DNA from: Candidatus Limnocylindria bacterium
Lineage (GTDB): Bacteria > Eisenbacteria > RBG-16-71-46
Direction of reading: 5' to 3'
NCBI GenBank assembly: GCA_035632955.1
Contig: DASQFU010000032.1
Span: 1-62,261 of the forward strand
DNA length: 62,261 bases
Shown: positions 14,348 through 22,657 of the stretch, in pieces
Layout of the letters: each line of letters opens with the position of its first letter
Numbering within the stretch: position 1 is the stretch's first letter
Notes under the pieces: model-generated
Seen by the model: only the letters and a program-made list of their open reading frames with translations
Database searches by the model: none
What the model was told of the DNA's origin: nothing
Made by a program: the position numbers and the translations under genes

Positions 14348-16081
14348 ATGAATAGGTGGATGATCGCGCTGATGTTGCTGGGATGCGTGGCGGCCGCCCC
14401 GGCGCTCGCGGCCGACGGCCCGGACGCGCGCTTCTCGGCGATGGCCGAGGAGTATCTGGCGCGCTGGCTTGCTCGCGCCCCGCACGTCGCGACCCGGCTC
14501 GGTGTCCACGACGGCGATGCGCTGCTCTACCCCGTCACCGAAGCGACCGTGGCGGAGGACGTCGTCTGGCTCAAGCGCTTTCGCTCGCGCCTCGAGGCGG
14601 TCCCCCGCGCGCGACTATCCTTCGACAACGCGCTCGACCGGGACGTGCTCGCCGCTCGCATCGAGCGCGAGCTGTTGAACCTCGAGGTGATCCGGCCCTT
14701 CGAGCGCAATCCCAACTTCTATCTCGACCTGATCGCCGGCTCGGTCCAGTCGCTGCTCCAGCGCAACTTTGCCTCCCCGTGCGAACGGATCCGCTCCGCC
14801 TCGCGCCGGCTGGCGCGCGTGCCCGAAGTACTGCGGGCCGCGAAGCTCAACCTGCGGAACCCCCCGAAAATCTACACGGAAGTGGCGATCACGCAGTATC
14901 AGGGCGCTCTGCGCTTCTACCGCGAAGTCGTGCCGGCGCTGGCGCGCGGATGCAAGGATTCCCAGGCGCAGGCCGGCCTCGCCGAAGCCGACTCGTCGGC
15001 GGTCAAGGCGGTCGAGAGCTTCCTCGCCTTTTTGCGCGAGGATCTACTGCCGGCCTCGACCGGCAGCTATGCGCTCGGCCGCGAGGTCTACCAGCGCAAG
15101 CTCGCGGCCGACGAGATGGAAACCACTCCGGTCGATACGCTGCTCGCCATGGCGTGGGCGGCGCTCGAAGAGCATCGCGTGCGGATGGAAGCGCTGGCGT
15201 CGCAGATCGCGCCGGGGCAGGGAGTGGCGGCGGCGCTCGACTCGCTCGAGCAGGAGCGCCCCGAGGCGTCGCAGCTCGTGCCGTTCATCGCCGCGCAGCT
15301 CGACACGATCCGCGATTTCCTGCGCCAGGCCGACGTGATCACGATGCCGGCGAAGGAGAACCTGAAGGTGCGCGAGACGCCTTTGTTTCAGCGCAGCCTC
15401 TCGTTCGCGTCGATGGATTCACCCGGCGTCTGGGAGAAGCGCGCCACCGAGGCGTATTACAACGTGACGCCGGTGGACCCATCCTGGACCGAGCAGCAGA
15501 AGCAGGATCACCTCGGCTTCTTCAATCGTTATGCGTCGGAGATCGTCTCGATCCACGAGGCGTTGCCCGGGCACTACTATCAGTTCCTCGTGCTCAAGAA
15601 GGTGCCGTCGCGGCTGCGCCAGGTGCTGGGCGCCGGGAGCAACGTCGAGGGTTGGGCGCACTATTGCGAGCAGATGATGCTCGAGCAAGGCTACGGGGGT
15701 GGCGACCCGCGCTACCAACTCGCGCAACTGGTGCTCGCCATTCGGCGGATCGGCCGATTCATCGCCGGCATTTCGCTGCACACGCAAGGCATGACTTACG
15801 AGCAAGCGGTCCAGCTCTTCCAGGAGCGCTGCTACATGGAACCGGTGAACGCGGAACGCGAGGCGCGCCGCGGCACCTCGGACCCGACCTACCTCGTCTA
15901 CACGCTCGGGAAGTGGCGGATCCTCGAGCTGCGGGCGGAGGTGAAGCAGCGGCTCGGGGACCGATTCCGGCTCAAAGCCTTCCACGATGCCCTGCTGAGC
16001 CAGGGCAGCGCCGCCCTGCCGGTGGTTCGCGCCGGCGTGTTGCGCGAGCTGACGGGCGACGCCACGGACCGCGGCGAGTGA
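14348..16081 (+). CDS. DUF885 family secreted protein (putative metallopeptidase)
   Basis: Signal peptide MNRWMIALMLLGCVAAAPALA; HEALPGHYYQ and EGWAHYCE motifs; YTLGK near the C-terminus. Confidence 0.88.
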   Translation: MNRWMIALMLLGCVAAAPALAADGPDARFSAMAEEYLARWLARAPHVATRLGVHDGDALLYPVTEATVAEDVVWLKRFRSRLEAVPRARLSFDNALDRDVLAARIERELLNLEVIRPFERNPNFYLDLIAGSVQSLLQRNFASPCERIRSASRRLARVPEVLRAAKLNLRNPPKIYTEVAITQYQGALRFYREVVPALARGCKDSQAQAGLAEADSSAVKAVESFLAFLREDLLPASTGSYALGREVYQRKLAADEMETTPVDTLLAMAWAALEEHRVRMEALASQIAPGQGVAAALDSLEQERPEASQLVPFIAAQLDTIRDFLRQADVITMPAKENLKVRETPLFQRSLSFASMDSPGVWEKRATEAYYNVTPVDPSWTEQQKQDHLGFFNRYASEIVSIHEALPGHYYQFLVLKKVPSRLRQVLGAGSNVEGWAHYCEQMMLEQGYGGGDPRYQLAQLVLAIRRIGRFIAGISLHTQGMTYEQAVQLFQERCYMEPVNAEREARRGTSDPTYLVYTLGKWRILELRAEVKQRLGDRFRLKAFHDALLSQGSAALPVVRAGVLRELTGDATDRGE

Positions 16082-19000
16082 AAGCCGTGACCGAACGCTT
16101 CGCCGGCCGTTACGCGCTGCTGCGGCGCCTCGGGCAGGGAGGCATGGGTGAGGTGTTCCTCGCGCGCGACCTGTCCACGCGCCGTGAATGCGCGCTCAAG
16201 CGTCTGACCGCGCCCACCGCCGCGCCGGAGATTCTGAGGCGCGAGTTCGCGGTGCTCGCCCGCCTGCAACACCCGGCCGTGGTCGCGGTCCACGAGCTGG
16301 ATTTCGCGCCCGATGGCAGCCCGTTCTACACCATGGAATACGTGCCCGGGCTGCCGGCCGACCGAGCGCTGGAGCCCGGCGACTGGCCGGGGTTCGCGTT
16401 CGCCGCGACCGAGGTGGCGCACGGGCTCGAGGTTCTTCACGGGCTGGGCGTGGTCCATGGCGACCTCAAGCCTTCCAACGTCCTGATCGTGAAACCGGCG
16501 AACGCCGGACCTCTTCCCTCGGCCGTACGCTTGCTCGATTTCGGCCTCGCCGCACTGCTCGGTCAGCCGGCGCACGGACATCGGGGCACGCCGGGCTACG
16601 CCGCGCCGGAGGTGGTGCGCGGCGAGCCGCCGTCGCCGGCCGCCGACCTCTACGGTTTCGGTGCCCTGCTGTACGCGATGATCACGGGGCGGCCGCCGTT
16701 CCAGGGCGAGAGCGCGCAGGCGTTGCTGCGCTCGCAACAGGCGGGACCGCCGCCCGCCCTGCCCCTGGCGGAGCGCGGAGCGAGCCCGGGGCTGGTTCAG
16801 CTCGTGCTGAGACTGATGGCGCCCGACCCGCGCGAGCGGCCCAGGGACGCGGGCGAGGTGCGCCGCGAGCTGGAGGGCCTCTATCCCGCCGCCCGGCGAC
16901 CGCTCGCGGATCGGCTTCAGGCCGCATCGATCGTCGGGCGCGAACGCGAGCTCGCGAGGCTCGAGCACTGGCTGGCGATGCACGCGACGCGCTCCCGCGT
17001 CGCGGTCGTCTCGGGTCCGGCAGGCGCTGGAAAGACCGTGCTGCTCGCCGAAATGGCGGCTCGCGCCGCCCTGTCCGGGCGCAGCGTCGCGCATCTGTCG
17101 TGCTCCTCGTTCGCGGAGCCGGGCGCCGTCGCTCTCGCCATCGCTCGGCGCTGGGCGGGCGTCGCGCAAGCGGAGGCGGACGAGGCTCCGGCGAATCTCG
17201 CCCCGGACCTCCGCAGCTTGCTGGCGCGTCGCTCGGCGACGTTGGACGAAAGTCATCTGGACCGGCTCGTGGAAGCGGTCGTGGCGTTGGGGCGCGCTGC
17301 CACGCGACCAGACCGCATGCCGGTCGTCTTGCTCGACGACGCCGAGCGTCTGGACCCGTTGTCGCGCGCATTCGTGATCCGGCTCGCCCTACACCCCAAG
17401 GCCGCTCCGGCGGTTTGGATCTGGGCGCGGCGCAGCGGTGAGGGAATCGACGCCGACGAGGGCGAGCGCGTGCTGCTCGAAGCCGGGGCTGCGCACCGGC
17501 TCGCGCTCGGCCCGCTGGAGGAGCCCGAGGTCGAACGACTGGTCGCCGCACGGCTGCATCAGACTCCTCCCGCCGCTCTGCTCGCGTTCTTGTGGAAGCG
17601 TGCGGCGGGACATCCGGGACTGACGGTCGCGCTGCTCCAGACCGCGGCCGCGGCGGGGGCGGTGCGCGAAAGCGACGCCGGCCTGATCGTCGACGCCGCA
17701 ACCCTGGAGACGTTGGAGCTGCCCGCCAGCTTCGAGGCGGCGCTGCTCGCCCGCTTGAAGGCACTACCCGAGCCGTCGCGTGCCGTCGCCGCGGCGTTAG
17801 CGATCTGGGGACACGGGCTCGAGCCGCGAGCGGCGCTCGAGCTGGCGAGCGCCGGACGAGCGGAACTCCTGCCGCCGGCGACGCTCGAGACGCTCGTGAG
17901 CTCAGGGCTCGCGGCGCGCGATGCCGAAGGTCGTGTGGGGCTCGCGCCGCCGGCTTTGGCCGAACGGCTGGTCGAAGGGCTTCCCTTCGAAATACGCCGC
18001 GCGCTGCATCGGGCGGCGCTCGCAGTGCCTGGACTCTCCGAAACGTCCCGGTTCCACCACCTCTCGGGAGCAGGCGACGTCGCCGCTGCGCTCGATGCCG
18101 CGGAACGAGCGCTGGCCGAGCATCCCGATCCCGGATTCGCGGCCCAAGCCGCGGCGCTGGCCGAGTCCGAGGCGCCGCAACGTGCCGCGGCCTGGCGCGA
18201 GCGTCACGCGCGCCTGCTGTCCGCCGCCGGGCGCTATGCCGACGCGATTCCGTCGTTCGAGCGGGCGCTGGCCTTGGAGCCTCGCGGCGAAACGCGGCAC
18301 ACGTTGCGAGTCGCGCTTTCGACGGCGTGCCTGCGCGCGGGCGACGCGGTGCGGCTGGCACAGGTCACGGCAGAAGCGCTGGCGGATGATCCCCCGCCCG
18401 CGCTGCGCTCGCGGATCCTGAGCAACGAGGCTGCCGGACATCTCGCGCTCGGCGCCCTGGATCGCTCGCAGGCGATCGCGCGGGAAGCTCTCGATCTCGC
18501 GGAAACCGCCGCCGATCCCGAGGCGATCGGCGTCGCATCCGTGACGCTCGGCGCGGTGCTCGGGCGGCTCGGACAGCTCAACGCCGCCGCGACTCTCGCG
18601 CGCCGCTCCTATCAGGCGCACGAGCAGTGCGGGCAGACCACGGGCTCGATCCGGGCGCTGGTGCTGCGCGGCTGGGTCGCGCACGCGCGCCAGGACCTGG
18701 CCGACGCGGACGGCGCGTATCGCGAAGCCTTGACCTTGGCGCGCGAAAATGGCCTGCGCCTGGCGCTCGAGGAAGTGCTCGTCAATCGCGCGGTGCTCCT
18801 GGGCGAGATCGGGCGCTGGAAGGAAGTGCGCGAGATCCAGGCGGAGGCCGCGCGCCTGGCACTCGAAGACGGCCGGCCGGGGGGAGCCGCGGTGGCGCTC
18901 GCCAATCTGGCGTTGCTCGAAGGACTGACCGGCGGGTCACGCTCAGCCTTGCGCAGGGCCCGCGGGGCGTTGCGGCTGGCGCGCAAGTACCTCCCGAACA

Positions 19001-21219
19001 ATCGCCCGACGGCGTTGCGTGCACTGGCTCAGGCTTACCGGTACACCGGCTGGCCGGCGAAGGCGGAACGCGGCGCCCGGCGCGCGTTGAGCCTGGCGAT
19101 CGAGATCCCTTCCGATGCCGACACGGAATGGTCGCGGATCGAGCTGATGCGTTGCTGGATGGCACTCGAGCGCTGGGAGGAAGTCAACGAGCTCGCGGAG
19201 CCGGCGCTCGACCCCCCACCGCGCATCGGCTCGATCGGTCTGATCGTGCTCGCATCGCTGGCCGGGCGCGCCGCGCTGCGAAACGGACATCTCGCGCTCG
19301 CCGAGGAGCGGCTCGCGCTGTGCAACCGCTGGCTCTCCGGGCGCGCTGCTCCCTTCGCCGCGGCCCAGACGGAAATGCTGCGAGCCGAGCTAGCCATGGC
19401 TCGCGGGAGCGCCGTGGACGGCATTCAGCACGCCGAGCAGGCATTAAAGACGCTGGCCTCTCTGCCGGCGCCGGCGGAGCGAGCCGCGGCTGCGGTCGAG
19501 TTCGTTCGCGTCGCGCTCGGGCGGCCGATCGACTCCGAACTGCCGTTCGGCGATTGGCTCGATCAGGCGGCGTCGACCTTCGAGCGACTTGGCGATCGCC
19601 GGGGGCACGCGGAGGCGCTGCGGTTGCAGGTCCAGTGGCTACGGCGGACCACGTCGGGCGCGCGCCGCACGGTACGCGATCGGGACCTGATCGAAGCCGT
19701 GAGCCGGCTGCTGAACTCGATGTCGGATCTCCGCAAGCTCACGCAGCGTGCGATGGAACTCGCCGGCGAGCAGCTCAACGCCGAACGCGGCGTGTTGTTG
19801 CTAGCTGATCCCGAGACCGGAAACCTGGAGCCGATGGCGGACTACGGCGCCGTGGACGCGACGACTCGCCACGACGCCGTGGGCTACAGCCGCCGGGTCG
19901 TCCAGCGCGTGGCCGAGAGCGGCGACAGCCTGCTGATCGGCGACGCGCCCAGCGACCCGAAGGCGCTCTCCGAGAGCGTGCTCGGCCTCGGGTTGCGCTC
20001 CATCGTGTGCGTGCCGATGTTCGTGAACGGACGCGTGGTCGGCGCCGTGTACCTGGACGACTCGCGTCGCTCGGCGACTTTCAGCGATGAGGATCGTGCT
20101 CTGCTCGAGGGGTTTGCGCAGCTCATGGCGCTCGCGATCGAGAAGAGCCGGGGCCATATCGAGGTGATGCGGGCCAACGAGGAGCTGGTCGGCGAGAACC
20201 TGGCGTTGCGTCAGGAAGCGACGGCGCGCTTCCAGCCGCGCGCGGTGATCGGCCCCAGCCTGGCGATGCAGCGCGTGATGGCAGTCGTCGAGCGAGCCGC
20301 GAACTCCTACGCCACGGTGTTGATCACCGGCGAGAACGGCACCGGCAAGGAGCTGATCGCCCGCATCCTCCACTATCACGGCAAGCGCGCCGCGATGCCG
20401 TTCGTGTCCGTGAACTGCGGGGCGATTCCCGAACAGCTCCTGGAGAGCGAGCTGTTCGGCATCCTCTCGTACGTGGCGACCGGCGTGCACGCGCGGGAGG
20501 GTCGCTTCGTCCAGGCGAACGGCGGCACGCTGTTCCTGGACGAGATCGGAGAGATGCCACTCCGCCAGCAAGTCGCGTTGCTGGCGGTGCTCGCGAACCG
20601 GGAGGTCCAACCGGTCGGCGGCGGGCCACCGATTCCCGTGGACGTCCGGATCATCGCCGCCACCAACCAGGATCTGCGCCTTCAAGTCGAGCAGGGGGCG
20701 TTCCGCCGCGATCTCTACTACCGTCTCAACGTCGTCCCGATCGAAGTGCCGCCGTTGCGCGAGCGTAAGGCGGACATCCCGACACTTGCCCGGCACTTCC
20801 TGGCCGAGTTCGCGCGCCAGCAGGAGCGCGAAGTGCCCGGGCTTTCGCCCAACTTCCTCGCCGTCCTGATGCAGAGCGATTGGTCGGGCAACGTGCGCGA
20901 GCTCCAGAACTACGTCGAGCGCGTGCTGGCGATGACCCCGGGCGATCTCCTCGAGCCCATTCCGCTTCCGCGCGATCTCGAGGACCGCGCCGGCTCGTTT
21001 CGCGTCAGGAGCGGACATACTTTGGGCGAGATGGTGGAAGCGCTCGAGCGCCGCATCATACTGGAGACGCTGGAGCGAGCCGGCGGCAACCAAAGCCTGG
21101 CGGCGCGCGAGCTTGGGATGACGGAACAGTCGATGCGCTACCGTATCCGCAAGTACGACCTCGGCTACCCTCGCCAGAATCAGCGATTTCGTTTAAACAG
21201 GCGAAACCGGCCCAACTAA
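16078..21219 (+). CDS. Hybrid Ser/Thr kinase - STAND/AAA ATPase - TPR - GAF - sigma54-type AAA+ - Fis HTH regulator (1713 aa)
   Basis: Kinase LGQGGMGEV, ALK, HGDLKPSN, DFG, GTPGYAAPE; GRERELARL, GPAGAGKT, VLLDDAE; helical repeats; GAF (SIVCVPM...VGAVYLD); GENGTGKE, LFLDEI, IIAATN, FRRDLYYRL, GNVRELQN; GNQSLAARELG; GTGA overlap with the DUF885 stop. Confidence 0.93.
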   Translation: MKAVTERFAGRYALLRRLGQGGMGEVFLARDLSTRRECALKRLTAPTAAPEILRREFAVLARLQHPAVVAVHELDFAPDGSPFYTMEYVPGLPADRALEPGDWPGFAFAATEVAHGLEVLHGLGVVHGDLKPSNVLIVKPANAGPLPSAVRLLDFGLAALLGQPAHGHRGTPGYAAPEVVRGEPPSPAADLYGFGALLYAMITGRPPFQGESAQALLRSQQAGPPPALPLAERGASPGLVQLVLRLMAPDPRERPRDAGEVRRELEGLYPAARRPLADRLQAASIVGRERELARLEHWLAMHATRSRVAVVSGPAGAGKTVLLAEMAARAALSGRSVAHLSCSSFAEPGAVALAIARRWAGVAQAEADEAPANLAPDLRSLLARRSATLDESHLDRLVEAVVALGRAATRPDRMPVVLLDDAERLDPLSRAFVIRLALHPKAAPAVWIWARRSGEGIDADEGERVLLEAGAAHRLALGPLEEPEVERLVAARLHQTPPAALLAFLWKRAAGHPGLTVALLQTAAAAGAVRESDAGLIVDAATLETLELPASFEAALLARLKALPEPSRAVAAALAIWGHGLEPRAALELASAGRAELLPPATLETLVSSGLAARDAEGRVGLAPPALAERLVEGLPFEIRRALHRAALAVPGLSETSRFHHLSGAGDVAAALDAAERALAEHPDPGFAAQAAALAESEAPQRAAAWRERHARLLSAAGRYADAIPSFERALALEPRGETRHTLRVALSTACLRAGDAVRLAQVTAEALADDPPPALRSRILSNEAAGHLALGALDRSQAIAREALDLAETAADPEAIGVASVTLGAVLGRLGQLNAAATLARRSYQAHEQCGQTTGSIRALVLRGWVAHARQDLADADGAYREALTLARENGLRLALEEVLVNRAVLLGEIGRWKEVREIQAEAARLALEDGRPGGAAVALANLALLEGLTGGSRSALRRARGALRLARKYLPNNRPTALRALAQAYRYTGWPAKAERGARRALSLAIEIPSDADTEWSRIELMRCWMALERWEEVNELAEPALDPPPRIGSIGLIVLASLAGRAALRNGHLALAEERLALCNRWLSGRAAPFAAAQTEMLRAELAMARGSAVDGIQHAEQALKTLASLPAPAERAAAAVEFVRVALGRPIDSELPFGDWLDQAASTFERLGDRRGHAEALRLQVQWLRRTTSGARRTVRDRDLIEAVSRLLNSMSDLRKLTQRAMELAGEQLNAERGVLLLADPETGNLEPMADYGAVDATTRHDAVGYSRRVVQRVAESGDSLLIGDAPSDPKALSESVLGLGLRSIVCVPMFVNGRVVGAVYLDDSRRSATFSDEDRALLEGFAQLMALAIEKSRGHIEVMRANEELVGENLALRQEATARFQPRAVIGPSLAMQRVMAVVERAANSYATVLITGENGTGKELIARILHYHGKRAAMPFVSVNCGAIPEQLLESELFGILSYVATGVHAREGRFVQANGGTLFLDEIGEMPLRQQVALLAVLANREVQPVGGGPPIPVDVRIIAATNQDLRLQVEQGAFRRDLYYRLNVVPIEVPPLRERKADIPTLARHFLAEFARQQEREVPGLSPNFLAVLMQSDWSGNVRELQNYVERVLAMTPGDLLEPIPLPRDLEDRAGSFRVRSGHTLGEMVEALERRIILETLERAGGNQSLAARELGMTEQSMRYRIRKYDLGYPRQNQRFRLNRRNRPN

Positions 21220-21372
21220 CTCTCACGCAATCGAATAAACCTCGTCCACCACCCGCAGATCGCCGAAGTCGGCGATGGTGGGATCGTTGGGTGGCGAACG
21301 ATCGCTCGATCTTGATCTGATAAACCTCAACGTTGCAATCGAATAGAGGCATCTCGCGGGACCGGACGGACA

Positions 21373-21388
21373 TGGCACGGTCCTGGCC
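21373..21388 (+). promoter_or_regulatory. Candidate sigma54 (-24/-12) promoter of the downstream three-gene operon
   Basis: TGGCACG-GTCC-TGGC; GG at 21374-21375 and GC at 21386-21387, 48 nt before the ATG at 21436. Confidence 0.6.
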
Positions 21389-21435
21389 TTCATGAGTTTT
21401 CCTAACTCGCCGGGAAACCACTCATGGAGGTCGTC

Positions 21436-21729
21436 ATGCGATCTAACCGCAGGACTCTTTTCGTCGCGTTTCTGATCAGCGCCGCGCTCGTCTTTGGCTC
21501 GCAGTCCGCATTCGCTCAGTTCACCGGAAATCCGCCTTCCGGCGGCAGCTCGATGAGGCCGACAGGCGGCGAGCCCAGCGCGCCGGCACCCGCCATCGGC
21601 TCGCGGACTCCGGTCTTCGGGCACGGAATCGCGCGGCCCTTCGTCTCGAGCTCGTGGGTTTCCCGTACCGGGCTCGCGCTTCGAAGCACGTCGTTCCGCG
21701 TCTGGCAGAGTGTTCTGCTGCCGTTCTGA
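21436..21729 (+). CDS. Small secreted protein (97 aa), unknown function
   Basis: RBS GGAGG at 21426-21430; signal peptide ending ..SAFA|Q; Gly/Ser/Pro-rich middle; amphipathic C-terminus. Confidence 0.75.
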   Translation: MRSNRRTLFVAFLISAALVFGSQSAFAQFTGNPPSGGSSMRPTGGEPSAPAPAIGSRTPVFGHGIARPFVSSSWVSRTGLALRSTSFRVWQSVLLPF

Positions 21730-22280
21730 TGACAATGATGGCGTCGCGTCAGCCCCAGCGAGTGGCCAGGGGGGCTCTGCATTCGCCCCCCGAGCAGCTC
21801 GTTCTGCGCCATCGCCACAGCCTGACGAACGTGCTGCTGCTCGGCGGTTCGGCGAGCGAGCGTCTCCGTTTGGCGCGCGCCTTCCACCGCGAGAGTCCGC
21901 TCCGACTCGGCTCGTTCGTGCCGGTCGACTGTGCCCGGCAGGAGGCCGCACTGCGCGCGGCGCTGAGCGGCTGGGTCTCTGCGGCGGGGCCGGGACCGAC
22001 GGCACATGGTCTGCAGAGCGCCGAGCACGGCACGTTGTTCCTCGACGACGTCGATCGACTCGGCGTCGATTCTCAGCGTTTGCTGATGACGCTCGCCACC
22101 AGCTCGCTCGGCGACCGCTGGTTCGCGGAGTCGACGCCGCGCGTGGGCCGTTTGGTCTGCGGCAACGCCGCTGATCTCGCCACCGTCGCGGCCGAGGGCC
22201 GGTTTCTGCCGGCGCTGTTCGACGCCCTGGACAAGATTCGTGTCGAGCTGGATGTCGTTTCACGCGGAGGGGCGGCCTGA
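21729..22280 (+). CDS. Stand-alone degenerate sigma54-activator AAA+ domain (pseudo-ATPase)
   Basis: TGATG coupling; NVLLLG...ARAFHRES...FVPVDC...AEHGTLFLDDV...SQRLL...GRF aligns with the NtrC AAA+ core, but Walker A Lys, GAFTGA and Arg fingers are absent. Confidence 0.78.
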   Translation: MTMMASRQPQRVARGALHSPPEQLVLRHRHSLTNVLLLGGSASERLRLARAFHRESPLRLGSFVPVDCARQEAALRAALSGWVSAAGPGPTAHGLQSAEHGTLFLDDVDRLGVDSQRLLMTLATSSLGDRWFAESTPRVGRLVCGNAADLATVAAEGRFLPALFDALDKIRVELDVVSRGGAA

Positions 22281-22657
22281 TGCTGCGCGGCTCCCCCGCG
22301 ATCGTGTTGTTGAGCGCCCGACCGGAAGCGCACGCAATCCTCGTCGATTCGCTGTGCGAAAGAGGCGTGACCGTCCGTGTCGCACGCCCTCCGGTCCGGG
22401 CGCTCTCTTGGCTGCGGGCAGAGCCCGAGCTGGTGCTGATCGATCTCGTGCACGGCGCGGGATTGAGTCCACAACTGGTCACGGCTCTGAACTCCAGACG
22501 CGGGCGCACTCGCGTGCTGGCGCTTCACTGTGGTGGGTTCGGGAATGATTCGTCGATGGCCGGCCTGACCGTCGACGGATTCTGCCGCGCCGATGCGACT
22601 GATTTCATCGCCGGCGCCCTGTCGACCTGCCGGCGGGTTCCCGCGACCACCCATTGA
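22280..22657 (+). CDS. Atypical single-domain response regulator receiver
   Basis: TGATG coupling; (beta/alpha)5 pattern with PELVLIDL; no acidic pocket and no conserved KP. Confidence 0.65.
   Translation: MLRGSPAIVLLSARPEAHAILVDSLCERGVTVRVARPPVRALSWLRAEPELVLIDLVHGAGLSPQLVTALNSRRGRTRVLALHCGGFGNDSSMAGLTVDGFCRADATDFIAGALSTCRRVPATTH

Follow-up and report, generated by a model that had tools for sequence, protein, structure and literature searches.

A predicted pseudo-ATPase derived from a sigma-54 activator core, encoded beside a giant activator in the Eisenbacteria

Bacterial enhancer-binding proteins (bEBPs), the activators of sigma-54 promoters, can hetero-oligomerise through their central domains, as do FleQ/FleT, HrpR/HrpS and RedR1/RedR2 (PMC10084136), and in RedR1/RedR2 of Aromatoleum anaerobium the inactive partner inhibits the active one (PMC10084136). 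FleT of Rhodobacter (Cereibacter) sphaeroides consists of an AAA+ domain only and is expressed from a FleQ-dependent sigma-54 promoter (PMC7277832). It is described as a second sigma-54 activator, a positive co-activator, in complex with FleQ, with which it is believed to hetero-oligomerise via the central domain (PMC7277832, PMC10084136). Here we analyse a 62,261-nucleotide stretch of DNA (the window) from Candidatus Limnocylindria bacterium (GTDB lineage Bacteria; Eisenbacteria; RBG-16-71-46; assembly GCA_035632955.1, contig DASQFU010000032.1, positions 1 to 62,261 of the forward strand). The window encodes a small protein related to the AAA+ cores of bEBPs, referred to below as the dead core, a short distance downstream of the gene for a giant bEBP:

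21729 to 22280, plus strand: the dead core, predicted from Pfam, alignments and an AlphaFold2 (AF2) model to be a free-standing, lid-less, catalytically dead alpha/beta core of a sigma-54 activator, 183 aa

The closest known case is FleQ/FleT. FleT, like the dead core, has neither a sensory N-terminal domain nor a helix-turn-helix (HTH) domain and is encoded in an operon with a sigma-54 promoter. The two differ in that FleT is a complete AAA+ domain, presumably with Walker A/B, GAFTGA, the Arg fingers and the lid, whereas the dead core comprises the alpha/beta subdomain only, with all motifs lost. HrpR/HrpS of Pseudomonas syringae and RedR1/RedR2 are likewise paralogous bEBP cores in mixed oligomers, but each pair consists of two full bEBPs, both with an HTH and ATPase activity. 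HrpV, a dedicated negative partner of HrpS, is not an AAA+ derivative. VpsR, Caulobacter NtrC, NtrX, PexR and TyrR have a core homologous to Sigma54_activat that no longer contacts sigma-54. From what is generally known of their domain content, these proteins keep the lid, the DNA-binding domain and, mostly, nucleotide binding, and act as DNA-bound regulators of sigma-70 promoters, whereas the dead core has no lid, nucleotide-binding motif or DNA-binding domain. The clamp-loader subunit delta-prime, and LAP1/LULL1 for Torsin, are non-catalytic AAA+-fold proteins that occupy a protomer position beside an active AAA+ ATPase and set its activity. The literature searched contained no account of a bEBP core that is free-standing, lid-less and dead.

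The original prediction, made from the sequence alone, took this gene for a stand-alone pseudo-ATPase derived from a sigma-54 activator core, and homology, fold and motif losses agree with it. The reading frame is intact and, as had been claimed, coupled on both sides, with TGATG overlaps at 21727-21731 and 22278-22282; an alternative longer start (GTG at 21654) receives no support from the homologues. The proposed check by hidden Markov model gave a match to Pfam PF00158 (Sigma54_activat): the score was 47.9 bits, where 20.2 is the gathering threshold, and the match spans profile positions 20-167 of 168. NCBIfam yielded sub-threshold partial matches only, to many bEBP equivalogs. All 35 PDB sequence matches come from AAA+ domains of bEBPs or of close relatives in the NtrC family, among them FleQ, NifA, FlrC, PspF, LuxO, NtrX, NtrC1, ZraR and VpsR. 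An AF2 model built with 37 homologues (pLDDT 81.4, pTM 0.78) shows strands and helices in the order typical of the AAA+ alpha/beta subdomain. In Foldseek it matches the cores of FleQ, PspF, FlrC, NtrX and NtrC1 with E values of 1e-9 to 1e-8 and query TM scores of 0.59-0.67. VpsR and NtrX are among its structural matches.

The motif losses listed in the original prediction all hold in HMMER alignments and when the protein is aligned with the full set of 18 bEBP cores that the genome encodes. The Walker A motif, GxxGxGKE in active proteins, is here G39-G-S-A-S-E-R45. The segment that replaces the GAFTGA loop is also 4-5 residues shorter. In Walker B, D106-D107 stands for DE; sensor I has C-G-N-A instead of AATN; and FRxDLYYRL has become F159-L-P-A-L-F-D-A-L, with both Arg gone. 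The chain stops about 10 residues past beta5, and Pfam finds neither the helical lid (AAA_lid_14/sensor II) nor an HTH. Taken together, the alignments and the model identify the dead core as a predicted pseudo-ATPase derived from a bEBP core and reduced to the alpha/beta subdomain: it is Sigma54_activat by homology, yet it falls short of every functional criterion of a bEBP. A FleQ-like site for c-di-GMP was considered but finds no support: R50, which follows Walker A and aligns with R185 of FleQ, is common in ordinary bEBPs of the genome, and the LFRS segment is absent.

The dead core belongs to a sizeable family. A word-indexed search recovered 37 homologues (about 150-240 aa, 43-80% identity), and an exhaustive profile search of 1.84 billion representatives gave 116 clusters at E<=1e-30, virtually all of them free-standing proteins of 120-240 aa (clusters defined at 50% identity). 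The few long matches of the profile search are ordinary bEBPs in which two or three cores lie in tandem and their scores are summed. For orthologues in metagenomes, the search alignment was trimmed to the family-specific N-terminal part, which avoids the generic GTLFLD pattern.

In an alignment of 133 family members, the position of the Walker A Lys is occupied by Arg in 133/133, never by Lys, and the preceding Gly is kept in none. Walker B Asp106 is retained in 121/133, and the next position, that of the catalytic Glu, holds Glu in just 13/133 (Asp in the window protein). At the two Arg-finger positions the four commonest residues are L/S/H/D and L/I/V/M, with Arg not among them, and the GAFTGA segment is unconserved within the family. 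A new set of residues is invariant or nearly so: H53, G101-T-L103, Q116, R141, G145, L163, D165, D168 and K169. At least 13 positions are conserved in at least 90% of members, several of them in 131-133 of 133. The best-conserved stretch is the former Arg-finger helix, over which lies a new invariant motif, D-x-L-D-K. That this helix is the most conserved, with new residues, argues for a maintained interface rather than decay. Also specific to the family is HRHSLTN (H28-R-H-S-L-T-N), just ahead of beta1, which has no counterpart in canonical cores.

Rates of substitution point the same way. The dN/dS comparison among orthologues that had been suggested for this gene was made by the Nei-Gojobori method on close pairs, with distant pairs excluded because they are saturated (pS about 0.5). 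Independent close pairs gave 0.12 (L001/L097), 0.17 (L098/L103), 0.23 (L099/L109), 0.14 (L115/L116), 0.19 (L102/L111) and 0.24 (L117/L119). Values lie within 0.12-0.27 for seven of the eight close pairs; the eighth, L118/L119, stands at 0.51, but few changes separate its two members. These values resemble those of neighbouring genes, namely 0.08-0.29 for the adjacent S11 peptidase and 0.15 for TauE; the C-terminal part of the giant bEBP gives 0.03. The reading frame is intact in more than 30 orthologues. The sole exception is L113, on a metagenome contig of 1120 nt, which diverges after GRLVV with no continuation in another frame and is probably an assembly chimera or a truncated copy. The loss of every catalytic motif is what would be expected of a functionless remnant in decay, and this was the alternative that the original prediction had set aside in favour of selection. 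The dN/dS values, the intact frames, the roughly 116 clusters and the invariant family-specific residues refute it, so that we rule out a pseudogene and regard decay as a very remote prospect. Judged by these comparisons, the dead core is under purifying selection.

Phylogenetically, the family forms one clade (support 100/100) that is separated by about 2.8 substitutions per site from all canonical cores. Identity between the dead core and the AAA+ domain of the giant bEBP is 27-31%, no higher than to other bEBPs. A recent duplication of the giant's AAA+ domain is ruled out by this low identity, by the separate clade and by the lack of affinity to the neighbour in the tree.

The dead core is the second of three translationally coupled genes, and the other features of the locus that bear on its function are as follows:

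16078 to 21219, plus strand: giant regulator of 1713 aa with a Ser/Thr kinase, STAND (AAA_16), TPR, GAF, a sigma-54 AAA+ core and an HTH (from the translation and from Pfam matches of orthologues L001-L003 and L097)
21171 to 21186, no strand: TCGCCAGAATCAGCGA, a stricter copy of the distal palindrome, adjoining the 21189-21204 site
21189 to 21204, no strand: TCGTTTAAACAGGCGA, distal palindrome-like site, at -184 from the -24 element and inside the 3' end of the giant gene
21260 to 21275, no strand: TCGCCGAAGTCGGCGA, proximal palindrome, at -113 from the -24 element, a candidate upstream activating sequence for the activator
21373 to 21388, plus strand: TGGCACGGTCCTGGCC, conserved sigma-54-type promoter with -24 GG and -12 GC, between the giant gene and the small open reading frame (ORF)
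21436 to 21729, plus strand: small secreted protein with a predicted signal peptide, first gene of the operon, in a position common to most loci
22280 to 22657, plus strand: pseudo-receiver of 125 aa (from an AF2 model, Foldseek and alignment), TGATG-coupled to the dead core

Gene order is constant in every locus with enough DNA: PIG-L, DUF885, the giant bEBP, an ORF of about 100 aa, the dead core, usually an ORF of about 125 aa, Peptidase_S11 and TauE. Junctions within the operon are TGATG or ATGA overlaps or gaps of 3-9 nt. The promoter motif TGGCA[CT]G-N4-T[TCG]GC has just 10 matches on both strands of the whole 3.14-Mb genome, which also encodes rpoN. Most orthologous loci whose upstream DNA reaches far enough have the promoter in this position, although none was identified in L013. 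Upstream of it lie two TCGC-N8-GCGA palindromes about 70 bp apart, a combination seen with the promoter form TGGCACG-N4-T[CG]GC in the window (21171-21388) and in L001-L015, L097-L102 and L115. The looser form TCG[CT]-N8-[GA]CGA occurs at about -114 (-103 to -117) in 15/17 distinct loci and at about -184 in 12/17. To judge by its sequence, this promoter with tandem palindromes has the classical layout of tandem bEBP binding sites. The dead core, with no N-terminal sensory domain or HTH, thus stands in a FleT-like setting, behind a sigma-54 promoter near a giant bEBP. The conserved sigma-54 operon, with its palindromes and its adjoining giant bEBP, makes a functional link of the dead core to a bEBP likely. 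The giant is presumed to be the cognate activator, and we infer that the operon depends on it.

The ATPase motifs of the giant are canonical in the alignment of the genome's bEBP cores, and its L1 loop alone differs. Where ELFGHxxGAFTGA would be expected, the loop (window 20440-20500, residues about 1455-1475) reads ELFGILSYVATG-V, with GILSYVATGV in place of GHxxGAFTGA; the Phe is gone and the loop is one residue shorter than the GAFTGA type. The orthologue in G007 has the same type of loop, GILGNVATGV. The other 17 bEBP cores of the genome have canonical or near-canonical motifs, and their loops are of GAFTGA type, canonical or nearly so. Other unusual arrangements of this domain turned up in the exhaustive profile search. 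P0160 (800 aa) combines four Clp_N repeats with two weak and divergent Sigma54_activat stretches behind them; it is unrelated to the dead-core family and may be another kind of degenerate bEBP-core derivative. P0092 and P0118 each have three tandem canonical Sigma54_activat cores, together with FHA domains in P0092, and are either fused gene calls or real multi-core activators.

The ORF that follows the dead core matched no family in a Pfam search, with no match to Response_reg at E<=1. Its AF2 model (pLDDT 78) nevertheless has the (beta-alpha)5 fold of a receiver, and the top Foldseek matches are all receiver domains (TM about 0.65). Of the residues that define an active receiver, only Asp55, the phospho-acceptor, is kept. 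Ser12-Ala13 stand where the acidic Mg2+ pair should be, His83 lies at the end of beta4, and the position of the conserved Lys is R, P or S. We identify it as a pseudo-receiver because it keeps Asp55, has Ser-Ala for the acidic Mg2+ pair and has lost the conserved Lys. The receiver fold rules out that this ORF is the missing lid. Nor are the dead core and the pseudo-receiver one frameshifted gene, since in several orthologues (e.g., L002 and L004) 1 or 4 nt belong to both frames, with a 5-nt gap in L098. The pseudo-receiver is present in most orthologous loci; it is absent from L001/L097 and L008/L015, which keep the dead core.

Together with the Ser/Thr kinase of the giant, these observations raise the possibility that the dead core and the pseudo-receiver are a signalling pair, phosphorylated by or docking on the kinase or TPR modules of the giant and not on its AAA+ ring. 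The HRHSLTN loop and the basic residues R45, H53 and R54, which surround the former nucleotide pocket, would then be a phospho-site or an anion or phosphopeptide pocket. The absence of a canonical counterpart to HRHSLTN, the invariance of Arg45 and a pseudo-receiver that keeps its Asp but no Mg2+ site are consistent with such a pair. The loop could, however, be purely structural, and some lineages keep the dead core without the pseudo-receiver; we regard this explanation as unlikely.

The small ORF at the head of the operon probably starts at ATG 21436, 5 nt past GGAGG at 21426-21430. In most loci its product, of about 100 aa, carries a signal peptide whose last residues are A-x-AQ, then as a rule PSGG[ST] and a C-terminus rich in Trp. 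Its sequence evolves fast. Most loci have such an ORF in the same place, among them two of the three without the dead core; it is encoded first in the operon, and no other product is as constant. Perhaps as a signal or surface factor, this secreted protein may be what the system is really there to produce.

Proximity to this gene also suggests a possible function of the dead core unrelated to bEBPs, the alpha/beta fold having been recruited as a scaffold or to bind a small ligand, for example in handling of the secreted protein or in the cell envelope with the S11 carboxypeptidase and TauE. The dead core is predicted to be co-transcribed with, and is translationally coupled to, the secreted protein, S11 and TauE are always next, and the long branch from canonical cores leaves room for functional change. 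We consider such a role distinctly improbable, given that neither a signal peptide nor a membrane segment is present in the dead core, that G001 and G007 keep the small secreted ORF without the dead core, and that S11 and TauE lie behind separate intergenic gaps.

The distribution of the genes in relatives indicates which parts of the system can be lost. Among 40 relatives surveyed, clear orthologues of the dead core (E<1e-26) occur in 16/24 other genera of the same family, and more divergent copies (30-39% identity) in the sister family and in another family of the class. Synteny with the giant bEBP extends across all three (family f1, sister family f3 and the other family of the class). Three genera, represented by G001, G007 and G021, keep the giant bEBP and lack both the dead core and the pseudo-receiver. 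In G001 (L120) the sigma-54 promoter and the small secreted ORF are kept, and the next gene encodes a PAS-histidine-kinase-receiver hybrid. In G007 (L121) the small secreted ORF is kept, a promoter scan gave no match, and a TPR-CHAT protein follows. In G021 (L122, G021:C6:68500-74000), the giant is followed, in place of the dead-core operon, by two more bEBP-like genes, which share 40-44% identity with its C-terminal part. The existence of these genera indicates an accessory, not an obligatory, subunit. From gene content, the core of the system appears to be the activator, the promoter and the secreted protein, to which the dead core, sometimes alone and sometimes together with the pseudo-receiver, is often added without being indispensable; this status fits a modulator better than an essential subunit. 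We also identified in G010 a second, paralogous module (L125, G010:C149:1-3500) comprising a giant-like activator, the promoter, a secreted PSGGT ORF and a dead core at 34% identity.

The dead core is therefore probably a built-in modulator of the giant activator. How it would act is a more tentative matter. The original prediction saw in it a candidate dominant-negative or scaffold subunit that poisons activator hexamers, and the reading that we favour, without giving it more than cautious credence, is of this kind. The giant bEBP would bind the palindromes and turn on the operon, and the dead core so produced would dock on the giant's AAA+ domain via the surfaces that normally join protomers. 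Unable to bind ATP, and lacking both an Arg finger and the lid that would take up the next protomer, it would cap or poison the ring, disable the neighbouring active site, block closure and lower ATPase output. The outcome would be delayed negative feedback. Within the dead core, the invariant Arg45 probably pairs with the retained Walker B Asp106 and fills the empty pocket, and D165/D168/K169 on the former Arg-finger helix are likely a new contact surface. The pseudo-receiver would be a second partner that tunes or gates binding of the dead core. The full version of this scheme is a hard-wired decoy subunit, an alpha/beta pseudo-ATPase induced by the giant that caps the giant's ring and time-limits the response, with the pseudo-receiver as gate; we regard it as possible but less likely than not.

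The sign of the effect distinguishes this negative feedback from a positive role of the FleT type, in which the dead core in a mixed oligomer stabilises assembly or redirects the giant to other promoters. FleT too is AAA+-only, is made from a promoter dependent on the master bEBP and is needed with FleQ at later promoters, and the synteny and the sigma-54 operon are equally compatible with such a role. The dead core, however, has no ATPase site, Arg finger, GAFTGA or lid; it has nothing catalytic to add, and each copy would cost the ring one active site. A positive co-factor or specificity switch thus seems to us rather unlikely. The comparison with Torsin is also informative. LAP1/LULL1 donate an Arg finger and thereby activate their partner, whereas the dead-core family, which has no homology to them beyond the AAA+ fold, has no Arg among the common residues at the finger positions, and this points towards inhibition.

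Several observations weigh against negative feedback exerted on the giant's ring. Whether the effect would be negative or positive is purely conjectural. The L1 loop of the giant lacks the GAFTGA Phe, and the giant's own sigma-54 competence is presumed. The tree, with its very long branch (about 2.8), gives no specific kinship of the dead core with the neighbour's AAA+ domain, and no domain fusion that would reveal a partner (Rosetta-stone) occurs among the roughly 116 family clusters. Any feedback via the dead core would also be dispensable, given the gene content of G001, G007 and G021.

Control of sigma-54 activators is known to operate through sensory domains, through unrelated anti-activators (PspA, NifL, HrpV, FleN) and through hetero-oligomers of two active paralogues. 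If the damping role proposed here is correct, it would represent a new principle, in which a pseudo-enzyme that copies the motor of an AAA+ ring, and that is encoded in the operon which the activator controls, regulates this ring. Enhancer-dependent transcription would then have, in the dead core, its first described example of a natural dominant-negative AAA+ protomer. To our knowledge, the number of active protomers needed per bEBP ring has so far been studied only with engineered mixed PspF hexamers, and the dead core would be a simple natural probe for this number. In this uncultured phylum, the locus encodes a whole signalling module that has not been described before, consisting of a kinase-STAND-bEBP, a predicted sigma-54 promoter with tandem palindromes, a small secreted protein, the dead core and the pseudo-receiver.

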